Of a stretch of 24,000 nucleotides of DNA, positions 17,472 through 19,211 are shown one piece after another. The stretch is from the NCBI GenBank assembly GCA_964607005.1, contig CAZSHO010000001.1, positions 98,457-122,456 on the forward strand, written 5' to 3'. Within the stretch, counting starts at the first letter, position 1; the number at the start of each line of letters is the position of its first letter. Position numbers and translations under genes: made by a program. The DNA is from an uncultured Rhodocyclaceae bacterium. Its GTDB lineage: Bacteria > Pseudomonadota > Gammaproteobacteria > Burkholderiales > Rhodocyclaceae. The notes under the pieces were generated by a model. It searched no databases and had not been told where the DNA came from. It saw nothing but the letters and a program-made list of their open reading frames with translations.

Positions 17472-19211
17472 TCAATACACGTCGTGCTGTGTGTTGTAGA
17501 CGTTGAACTTGCCGGTCGGCGTGATCAGGCGCTTGTCCTTGATGACAGCCTTCAGCTTGCGCGTCTTGTCATCGACGACCACGATGGCCGACTCGTTGTA
17601 CTTGGCGCTACCCACCGAGAACCCCGCCTCGTCACACGCCTAGTAGTACTAGGGTTGCATGGCACGCTTGGCGCCCTCGCCCAGTTCGGCCCACTGGGCG
17701 ATCGGCAGAGCAACGAAGCCCTTGTCGAGATTGTTGATGTCATAGACGGCGATCGACTGGCTGATGCCGGCATCCGGGTTGAGCGTGGTATCCACCCACA
17801 GGTTCTTCGACTTCGGATGTGTCTTGATGAAGAGCGATCCGCCGCCCTGGCCCTTCAGCGTCTGCACGACTTTCCAGGCATTCGCCTTGTGGCCCTTCGG
17901 ATCGGTGCCGATCAGGCTGATCGTCTCGTCCCCCAGATGGCTGGTCGCCCAGACGGGGCCGAACTTCGGATGCACAAAGTTGGCGCCACGACCCGGGTGC
18001 GGGATCTTGCCAACCTCCACCAGTGCCGTCAGCTTGCTGTCGACGGTGTCGATGACGGCAATCTTGTTGGAGTTGTTGGCAGCCATCATGACGTAGCGCT
18101 GGGTGGACTCCCAGCCGCCGTCATGCAGGAAGCGTGCGGCACCGATCTCGGTGATCTTCAGGTTGTTCAGGTCGGAGTAATTGACCATCATCACCTTGCC
18201 GGTCTCCTTGACGTTCACCACGAACTCGGGCTTGTGGTGGCTCGCCACGATGGCGGCCACGCGCGGTTCCGGATGGAACTCCTGGGTGTCCACGGTCATG
18301 CCGCGGGTGGCGACGATCTTCAGTGGCTCGAGCGTGTCACCCTTCATGATGACGAACTGCGGTGGCCAGTAGGTGCCCGCGATAGCGTACTTGTCCTGAT
18401 AACCCTTGAACTTCGAGGTCTCGACCGAACGCGCCTCGAGGCCGACCTTGATTTCGGCAACGACCGCAGGCTTCTCCATCCACAGGTCGATCATGTCGAT
18501 CTTGGCATCACGGCCAATGACGAAAAGGTAACGCCCGGACGCAGACATGCGCGAGATATGCACGGCATAGCCGGTCTCGACCGTTTCGATGATCTTCTTG
18601 CTGTCACCATCGATCAGGGCAACCTTGCCGTCGTCACGCAGCGTCACCGAGAAGATGTTCTCGAGATTGAGCTTGTTCATCTTCCTGGTCGGGCGCTTCT
18701 CGGGCGGCACGATGACTTTCCAGCTCTCCTTCATCTTCGCCAGGCTGTATTCGGGCGGTTGCGGCGGCTCATGCTGCAGGAAGCGCGCCATCAGATCGAC
18801 GTCTTTCTCGGTGAGCTCACCGGAGGTCTGCCAGTTGGGCATGCCGCCGGGCGAACCGTAAGCGATGAAGACCTTCAGGTAATCGGTACCTTTCGGCAAG
18901 GTGATGTCGGGTGTCAGCGGCTTGCCGGTCGCGCCCTTGCGCAACACACCGTGGCAGCCGGCACAACGCTCGAAGTAGATCTGCTGGGCGCGAACGAATT
19001 CCTCGCGTGTGATGGGAGGCGGCTTGGGCAGCTCGGGCTCCTTGGCGTGCTCGGGTGTCATCGCCTGCGCGGAACCCTGGTAGCGAATATCCTGTTCCGT
19101 CGTCTTCGGGTGCACGGTTTTATCTTCCTGCGCCTGCGCCCAGACCAGCGAAACAGGCAGCACAGCCATTAAAGACACGCTGGCTGCGAGTACAAACTTG
19201 CGGCTTTGCAT
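17472..19211 (-). pseudogene. nirS: nirS, cytochrome cd1 nitrite reductase, interrupted by two in-frame TAG codons near the 3' end
   Basis: The start is ATG 19211 ([25 protein letters not shown] signal peptide) with a GGGAGA SD. The ORF-track start at 19298 adds 29 non-signal residues. It has the heme c motif CAGCHGV and a cd1 propeller. The intact ORF ends at TAG 17649-17651 and a second TAG lies at 17640-17642. The same frame continues to 17472 and encodes the conserved NirS C-terminus ...[38 protein letters not shown]. Confidence 0.85.

Follow-up and report, generated by a model that had tools for sequence, protein, structure and literature searches.

The window analysed here, a stretch of 24,000 nucleotides from an uncultured Rhodocyclaceae bacterium, carries on its minus strand a nir gene cluster in the order nirS-C-F-DL-G-H-J-N, the canonical operon headed by nirS, with a NosR/NirI-type gene and a tRNA-Leu(CAA) upstream of nirS. 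The genes downstream of nirS, spanning positions 11061..17359 of the minus strand, were all found to be intact, and no internal stops occur in the other 17 delimited genes of the window. Since nirE is absent from this operon, the 'complete heme d1 pathway' of the original prediction was overstated: such a pathway cannot be claimed from the window alone. The reading frame of nirS opens with an ATG at position 19211 (minus strand, MQSRKF...), which is also the start chosen by the gene call on a contig of the Logan assemblies, and its translation continues to AKRAMQP, where it meets the first of two in-frame TAG codons. The relevant features are the following:

17652..19211, minus strand: 5' part of nirS, 520 codons, encoding the cytochrome c domain and the greater part of the d1 beta-propeller (open reading frame and translation)
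17649..17651, minus strand: first in-frame TAG, where relatives have GAG or GAA for an invariant Glu (E484 of the mature P. aeruginosa protein)
17640..17642, minus strand: second in-frame TAG, in place of AAG (Lys in most close relatives)
17639..17653: perfect 7-1-7 palindrome CCTAGTA-N-TACTAGG, plus-strand patch CCTAGTAGTACTAGG, with two CTAGs and a ScaI site (AGTACT)
17610..17651, minus strand: core altered tract, codons 521-534, free of indels, with ~10 substitutions that replace the residue at 7 conserved positions, 6 of which are near-invariant columns (against 25 relatives)
17596..17660, minus strand: possible full altered tract, codons 518-539, adding M518 and Y538 (each in 0 of 78 relatives)
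17472..17639, minus strand: 3' remainder of nirS, in frame, its final 41 codons fully conserved
17417..17445, minus strand: intrinsic terminator past the distal TGA, GCGGGGGCC-TGCG-GGCCCCCGC followed by TTGTTTT, a 9-bp all-GC hairpin (direct reading, inverted repeat)
17359-17012, minus strand: nirC, intact (family scan)
17015-15843, minus strand: nirF, intact (family scan)
15833-14841, minus strand: nirDL, intact (family scan)
14848-14405, minus strand: nirG, intact (family scan)
14480-13911, minus strand: nirH, intact (family scan)
13801-12653, minus strand: nirJ, intact (family scan)
12899-11061, minus strand: nirN, intact, given as its longest open reading frame (family scan)

Around the interruption the minus-strand codons of nirS read GGC GCC AAG CGT GCC ATG CAA CCC TAG TAC TAC TAG GCG TGT and continue GAC GAG GCG GGG TTC TCG GTG GGT AGC GCC AAG TAC AAC GAG. 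Beyond the second TAG the frame stays open for 54 codons, to a TGA at 17474-17472. Both stops thus lie where they had been reported, and the accompanying observations, that the C-terminus remains in frame behind them and that the strong terminator (hairpin and TTGTTTT at 17445-17417) follows the distal TGA instead of the TAGs, were borne out as well; a search for terminator-like or promoter sequences created by the patch or lying 3' of the TAGs found none. As written, nirS would yield a protein of 520 amino acids, of about 57 kDa where the full-length form would have about 63 kDa, that lacks the last ~58 residues of the d1 beta-propeller and is expected to be inactive.

The hallmark of NirS is an N-terminal c-type cytochrome joined to a C-terminal Cytochrom_D1 eight-bladed propeller, in a protein of ~540-580 amino acids. 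By its domains, its match to 1NIR and its position in a nir operon, the interrupted gene is identified as NirS, the cytochrome cd1 nitrite reductase. Its last 140 residues match chains of the 1NIR family with E = 2e-61 and align without gaps onto residues 405-543 of P. aeruginosa NirS, the solved sequence of which reads QPEYNKRGDEVWFSVWNGK at residues 482-500. In this register the stops map to E484 and K487, the two lost tryptophans are W493 and W497, and the truncation, measured on the P. aeruginosa protein, removes 60 of 543 residues. The C-terminal string of P. aeruginosa NirS given in the original prediction proved inexact, but its register was right for the two stops and the two tryptophans, and the gapless alignment it proposed for the interrupted region agrees with the solved sequence. 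A functional NirS would show an uninterrupted frame through the conserved C-terminal blades; here that frame contains two TAGs, and six near-invariant residues are replaced.

For comparison we used 80 NirS loci obtained by scanning one genome per species, the best of them 84% identical and the closest belonging to Rhodocyclaceae, Sulfuritalea and 'Ca. Desulfobacillus' MAGs; the best identity in the protein database was 84-86%. These relatives are cd1 nitrite reductases of 575-578 amino acids with PF13442/PF00034 and PF02239 domains. All 80 reach the same C-terminus, and the motif QPE(Y/F)N-x-x-GDEVW(F/L)(S/A)(V/I)W is kept in every one of them, bar a single TAG at a variable position in one MAG (L079). 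A NirS that naturally ends near ...AMQP, which had been named as the finding that would overturn the pseudogene reading, was seen in none of the 80 loci and in none of the database matches listed (~540-600 amino acids or contig-end fragments), and we reject a natural short form of the enzyme. Locally irregular nirS genes are present in three of the 80 relatives, all of them MAGs: in L079 one AAG of this motif has become TAG, one codon away from the second TAG of the window; L080 has a compensated frameshift patch of ~60 nt; and in L063 the stop codon is lost.

The departure of the window from these relatives is confined to a very short segment. The gene deviates at six of 197 near-invariant NirS columns (E521*, N523Y, G526C, V529A, W530G and W534G), all six within 14 residues (P about 1e-7 were six invariant columns drawn at random), and agrees with its relatives at the remaining 191; NirF likewise shows no deviation at its 132 near-invariant columns. 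Residues unique to the window among 78 aligned relatives number one in positions 77-505 and ten in positions 506-538. Codon-by-codon comparison with 25 relatives gives ~10-13 substitutions in 42-63 nt (~20%) and zero indels, with the replacements E521*, N523Y, K524*, G526C, V529A, W530G and W534G. M518 and Y538 probably belong to the same lesion, by comparison with relatives, and the altered tract may therefore extend from codon 518 to codon 538/539 (17660-17596, ~13 substitutions). The original prediction was correct about the stops and the tryptophan changes, and about substitutions instead of an indel, the alignment across the tract being gapless; it missed the cluster of ~10-13 substitutions, so that the lesion is larger than had been noted.

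The inferred ancestral DNA of the segment reads CCS GAG TAC AAC AAG GCC GGC GAC GAG GTS TGG TTC TCG GTG TGG AGC, and the firm changes from it are G>T, A>T, A>T, C>G, G>T, C>T, T>C, T>G, T>G and G>T. Transversions exceed transitions by 9:4 in the tract, codon position 1 takes six of ten changes, and a plus-strand A is gained or lost in nine of the ten firm changes, a bias for which we have no explanation. The number and the clustering of the substitutions make ordinary pseudogene decay an unlikely cause. An old, decayed pseudogene can be rejected outright, given the absence of deviations at the 191 columns outside residues 521-534, the absence of indels and the conservation of the last 41 codons. 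Together with the intact columns of NirF, this means that the lesion is either recent or unreal.

The perfect palindrome was made by three substitutions (G>T, A>T and A>T) out of an ancestral sequence already paired at 4/7 positions, one of the three also producing the AGTACT (ScaI) site, and it is largely a by-product of GAG and AAG becoming TAG after a C. The inverted repeat CCTAG/CTAGG of the original prediction is certainly present, and is in fact a perfect 7-1-7, but by itself it is not significant, since there are six perfect 7-1-7 palindromes in the window. At -23.5 kcal/mol, against -26.2 kcal/mol for the ancestral sequence, the altered tract has gained nothing in folding, and it matched no Rfam family; a hairpin or structured RNA is rejected on these grounds; inversion or shuffling of the ancestral segment is rejected too, because neither sequence nor composition matches. 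The rarity of CTAG, as originally remarked, is real: the tetranucleotide occurs three times in 24 kb, where ~13 are expected from a Markov model and ~84 from base composition, and two of the three sites fall in the patch, the third being the stop of nirF. In the Markov model the altered tract is the least genome-like 45-mer of any coding region in the window (z about -3.4) and the fourth least genome-like of the whole window, the three lower ones being AT-rich intergenic regions.

The same organism can be found, at 100% identity, in Logan assemblies made from seven public runs that belong to five projects (SRR5933705, SRR35206414, SRR35206416, SRR35206418, SRR31820082, SRR14117728 and ERR1233629), the contigs of which cover only 17520-13012 and 21388-18943 of the window. 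They differ from it by one mismatch in 16,855 compared bases, representing 6,955 distinct positions (~7 kb), and are 100% identical to it over 17520-13012. The flanks of the tract are thus confirmed by independent contigs at <=17520 and >=18943, but the patch is crossed by none: the NirC-bearing contigs all begin at 17520 and the NosR-like contig stops at 18943. The contigs break within nirS because, at k=31, they run into 31-mers common to the nirS of other species. One such 31-mer, after which the species part ways at the synonymous position 17490, explains the break at 17520 and leads us to reject a second nirS copy behind it. When 45-nt peaks of nirS are ranked by DNA conservation, the patch occupies the third, and peaks 1 and 6 are where the Logan contigs break. 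The longest exact runs between species are not at the patch (17 pairs, against up to 36 elsewhere), contrary to the expectation that it would be the hardest inter-species repeat.

The tract has organism-specific flanks, for example GCCCAGTGGGCCGAACTGGGCGAG upstream and, downstream, GCCAAGTACAACGAGTCGGCC or an ACA codon at 17492-17490. Neither form of the truncated NirS (520 and 526 amino acids) was on record when looked up exactly; two exact DNA scans of JGI metagenomes with organism-specific 23-mers and 24-mers gave 0 matches; twenty partial products, ten truncated and ten repaired, were absent from the protein collection of the public assemblies, which carries no information because their fragment boundaries were guessed; and the plasmid collection held no match above 78% identity. 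Altogether, no independent contig or protein fragment spanning 17596-17660 was found in Logan, the JGI metagenomes or the protein and plasmid collections, and a literature search on the run accessions or on an interrupted nirS returned nothing relevant. The organism itself was met in metagenome runs only and is missing from the species-level genome collection and, above 86% identity, from the protein database, which suggests that the window comes from a MAG.

Could the stops be functional? The conserved C-terminus, kept in frame past the TAGs, would allow recoding or read-through, programmed ribosomal bypass, or a split NirS in which the 520-aa N-terminal part reassembles with the product of a 47-aa GTG-initiated ORF (17615-17472), the GTG at 17615 having GAGGCGGGG upstream. 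Recoding of TAG is expected where the codon is not used as a general terminator, where dedicated tRNA or pyl genes are present and where homologues tolerate variation at the position. Within the window none of this holds: TAG terminates three of the 18 genes, nirF included; there is no suppressor or pyl tRNA, the sole tRNA being Leu(CAA); and all 78 relatives have Glu at position 521. Even a read-through product would carry G526C, V529A, W530G and W534G at positions that do not vary among those 78 relatives. Bypass lacks matching take-off and landing codons, and bypass and splitting alike would remove EYNxxGDEVWFS, an invariant strand. No RNA family was matched, and a NirS split or recoded at this place was encountered in 0 of 80 relatives and in none of the database matches listed. 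The functional reading is essentially refuted, and we would give it hardly any credence. Targeted hypermutation, with a diversity-generating retroelement or some other localised mutator at work on the 3' part of nirS, would account for a dense cluster made of substitutions only near the end of the gene and for the gain or loss of plus-strand A in nine of ten firm changes. Such retroelements are recognised by a nearby template repeat, ~90% identical to the variable region and differing from it at adenines, together with a reverse transcriptase. The ORFs scanned in the window include no reverse transcriptase, and neither a template repeat nor any repetition of 10 nt or more of the tract occurs in the window; moreover, the target is invariant across 78 species where a hypervariable one would be expected, and the outcome is nonsense codons. 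We therefore regard this explanation as extremely improbable. Barely more probable is a variant of it in which the tract is real and a templated or enzyme-driven hypermutation biased to the adenines of one strand, acting off target, or an unknown targeted mutator, has inactivated nirS, a conserved respiratory gene, and spared the heme d1 pathway. Recoding, a split gene and targeted hypermutation, taken together, deserve at most a very small weight, and a small remainder of the probability is reserved for causes outside every reading discussed here.

The serious contest is between a real lesion and a corrupted record. A real tract would be a very recent, possibly engineered, nirS null allele produced by a single multi-nucleotide event, such as ectopic or templated repair from a genomic donor, error-prone patch synthesis, or the construction of a laboratory allele with two ambers and a ScaI site for diagnosis. 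In its favour, every stretch of the window open to checking is base-perfect, the frame survives a lesion free of indels, and all three substitutions in the first 15 nt of the tract perfect the palindrome, one of them making AGTACT, which looks non-random; a simple nonsense codon exists in the same motif of L079, and internal stops are known in denitrification genes of other uncultured Rhodocyclaceae, for example in the nosZ of Accumulibacter, as cited in PMC8407102. Uniform random error, for its part, would combine a perfect 7-1-7 palindrome with a double stop and a double CTAG in only ~1e-4 of cases, which counts against an artefact, with the proviso that the three features are mutually linked and were picked out post hoc. 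Against a real allele, we know of no bacterial mutational process that leads to ~20% substitution over 60 nt with the flanks untouched. Gene conversion with nirN, nirF or any other part of the window as donor is rejected, as no match of at least 10 nt is found; nor is there a donor match of at least 12 nt in 87 related loci. The footprint of a mobile-element insertion or excision, which would consist of extra or missing bases with a target-site duplication, is rejected by the gapless codon alignment to 25 relatives, and a quasi-palindrome template switch, which alters one arm only, by the positions of the changes, which affect both arms (position 3 in the left arm, 9 and 12 in the right arm) and include at least 7 outside the repeat. 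A designed knock-out would have no need of the additional G>C, V>A and two W>G replacements, and neither nirS nor the operon shows secondary signs of relaxed selection. The absence from public assemblies of truncated products with 9 plausible contig starts points weakly the same way. On this evidence we consider a real null allele possible but rather unlikely.

We lean, with modest confidence, towards the alternative that the tract is not in the DNA of the organism and reflects an error made locally in assembly or consensus, or else an edited record. From comparison with its relatives, the lesion reads as one sharply local corruption, made of substitutions only, of an otherwise canonical and conserved nirS, in which the TAGs are part of the damage and not a signal. 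The main argument is its density, ~20% over ~60 nt between unchanged flanks. A local error is further favoured because neither selection nor natural mutation makes sense of changes that create stops and turn invariant Trp into Gly; because the composition of the tract is foreign to the genome, with two of the three CTAGs and a z of about -3.4; because the patch lies on conserved peak 3 of a gene which the breaks on peaks 1 and 6 demonstrate to be a trouble spot for assembly in these communities; because the organism has been seen in metagenomes only, suggesting a MAG source; and because the three of 80 relatives with a locally irregular nirS are all MAGs. General sloppiness of the record is no argument for an artefact, since the window is otherwise base-perfect (1 mismatch in 16,855). 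Local assembly errors are common in MAGs, with 13 in one curated 1.13-Mb MAG, and put wrong protein sequences into databases (PMC7111523).

A local error of this kind could arise where a stretch of consensus without perfect read support, or a later edit of the record, introduces the altered tract into a gene that, in the organism, would encode an intact NirS of 578 amino acids reading ...QPEYNKAGDEVWFSVWSAK... at this place. If the window stems from a short-read assembly of a mixed community, one possible route is that a highly conserved stretch of nirS was shared exactly with co-occurring relatives, and that a noisy read with organism-specific flanks then gave the only unbranched path through it. 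Because the patch does not coincide with the longest exact runs between species, such a repeat bypass is compatible with our results and not specifically supported by them. As a set, the three alternatives of the original prediction (a recent pseudogene, an artefact, or a deliberate disruption) agree with the evidence, the other readings being excluded.

The consequences differ accordingly. If the tract is an artefact, any annotation of the genome would mistake nirS for a pseudogene and count the organism among those that cannot convert nitrite into NO, an error of a type described in databases for uncurated MAGs (PMC7111523). If it is a null allele, a truncated NirS of 520 amino acids would exist beside intact genes for heme d1 biosynthesis, and the organism would either count as a truncated denitrifier or depend on a further nitrite reductase with its gene elsewhere; the case would then add one more truncated denitrifier, of note only for the arrival of about a dozen substitutions in a single event. 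No new biological mechanism is indicated in either case, and the main value of the analysis is in quality control, for which it provides a precise tract, 17596-17660, and a set of public runs that contain the organism.

Compared with known systems, nirS is normal outside the tract. The order of the nirSCFDLGHJN genes matches that of the known cytochrome cd1 nirS operon, and the gene resembles the NirS of P. aeruginosa (1NIR) and Paracoccus (1QKS) in its cytochrome c domain and Cytochrom_D1 propeller. Unlike known NirS, it has two in-frame TAGs and five other replacements at conserved positions in codons 521-534, with a product that would end at residue 520. Ordinary nonsense pseudogenes carry single substitutions or frameshifts, whereas this nirS has ~10-13 substitutions in ~50 nt and none elsewhere. 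In the internal stop of nosZ in Accumulibacter clade IC, as cited in PMC8407102, one reductase gene is likewise interrupted while its accessory genes are intact. Quasi-palindrome mutagenesis offers a partial likeness, in that three clustered substitutions perfect an imperfect inverted repeat (4/7 pairs), but here both arms have changed, and a stem as weak as the ancestral one could not prime a switch. The local assembly errors of MAGs (Chen et al. 2020, PMC7111523) are alike in being short, sharply bounded corruptions inside an accurate contig, and in striking a coding gene at a place that assemblies of mixed communities fail to cross cleanly.

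The organism was found at 100% identity in seven public runs from five projects, represented by the Logan contigs L081-L087, and the single SNP between these contigs and the window lies at position 15613, in L084. The k=31 contigs assembled from those runs end inside nirS, at window positions 17520 and 18943, and these breaks coincide exactly with 31-mers that are conserved between species. The organism was not found in the species-level genome collection, scanned with one genome per species, nor in JGI metagenomes by exact scans with organism-specific DNA patterns.

Irregular nirS genes also occur among the 80 related loci encoding NirS. 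A distantly related nirS at 4474 of locus L079 (MAG KLAP71, CAUJIM010000006.1), normal in all other respects, is likewise hit in the QPEYNQ-K-GDEVW motif, by a single AAG>TAG nonsense codon that lies one codon further 3' than the second TAG of the window. This could be a coincidence; alternatively, the conserved motif stretch could be error-prone in MAG assemblies. In a second locus, L080 (MAG MFD03551.bin.1.156, about 3250-3420), two frameshifts that compensate each other alter about 60 nt of the part of nirS encoding the cytochrome c domain and produce an in-frame stop, and at the 3' end of nirS in a third, L063 (Halomonas MAG M30B70), the stop codon is lost and reading runs about 70 codons further. 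These cases, three among the 80 relatives, point to local irregularities in about 3-4% of the nirS sequences that come from MAGs.

Other features in the window
98-703, plus strand: SCO1/SenC-like protein (family scan)
775-2352, plus strand: 525-aa fusion of cytochrome b, two 4Fe-4S clusters and a FlpD/HdrA-C-terminal-like domain
2345-2863, plus strand: 172-aa ORF without family
2860-4257, plus strand: 465-aa protein, weak Pfam COX1 match
4439-5590, minus strand: 383-aa ORF
4760-5605, plus strand: 281-aa ORF
5016-5690, minus strand: 224-aa ORF
6044-7972, plus strand: 642-aa fusion protein (family scans)
19371-21350 (longest ORF), minus strand: NosR/NirI-like gene, upstream of nirS
21319-21405: tRNA-Leu(CAA)

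With the NosR model, whose cut-off is 1000 bits, the NosR/NirI-like protein reaches 656 bits, and a long Pro/Ala/Ser-rich insert separates its FMN-binding part from the membrane and ferredoxin parts. Its longest ORF, from a GTG at 21350, runs into the tRNA-Leu(CAA) gene; the true start is probably the TTG at 21194, giving the 607-aa product that is also found in an independent Logan gene call.

Long ORFs occupy both orientations of the roughly 1.7 kb between 4257 and 5978, and family scans of the three listed there returned no Pfam or NCBIfam match. The 642-aa protein, in which an N-terminal cytochrome b is combined with a 2Fe-2S ferredoxin and a BenC/Fre-like FAD/NAD-binding reductase module, is a membrane-anchored reductase of uncommon architecture.

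The plus-strand cluster at 98-4257 adjoins the nir operon. The COX1 match of its 465-aa protein (45 bits) is the sole one in Pfam, and sequence searches found neither an NCBIfam family nor a relative of solved structure. The senC linkage is reminiscent of the norSY-senC (sNOR) clusters found in ammonia oxidisers, and by this likeness the 465-aa protein may be an atypical heme-copper NO reductase.
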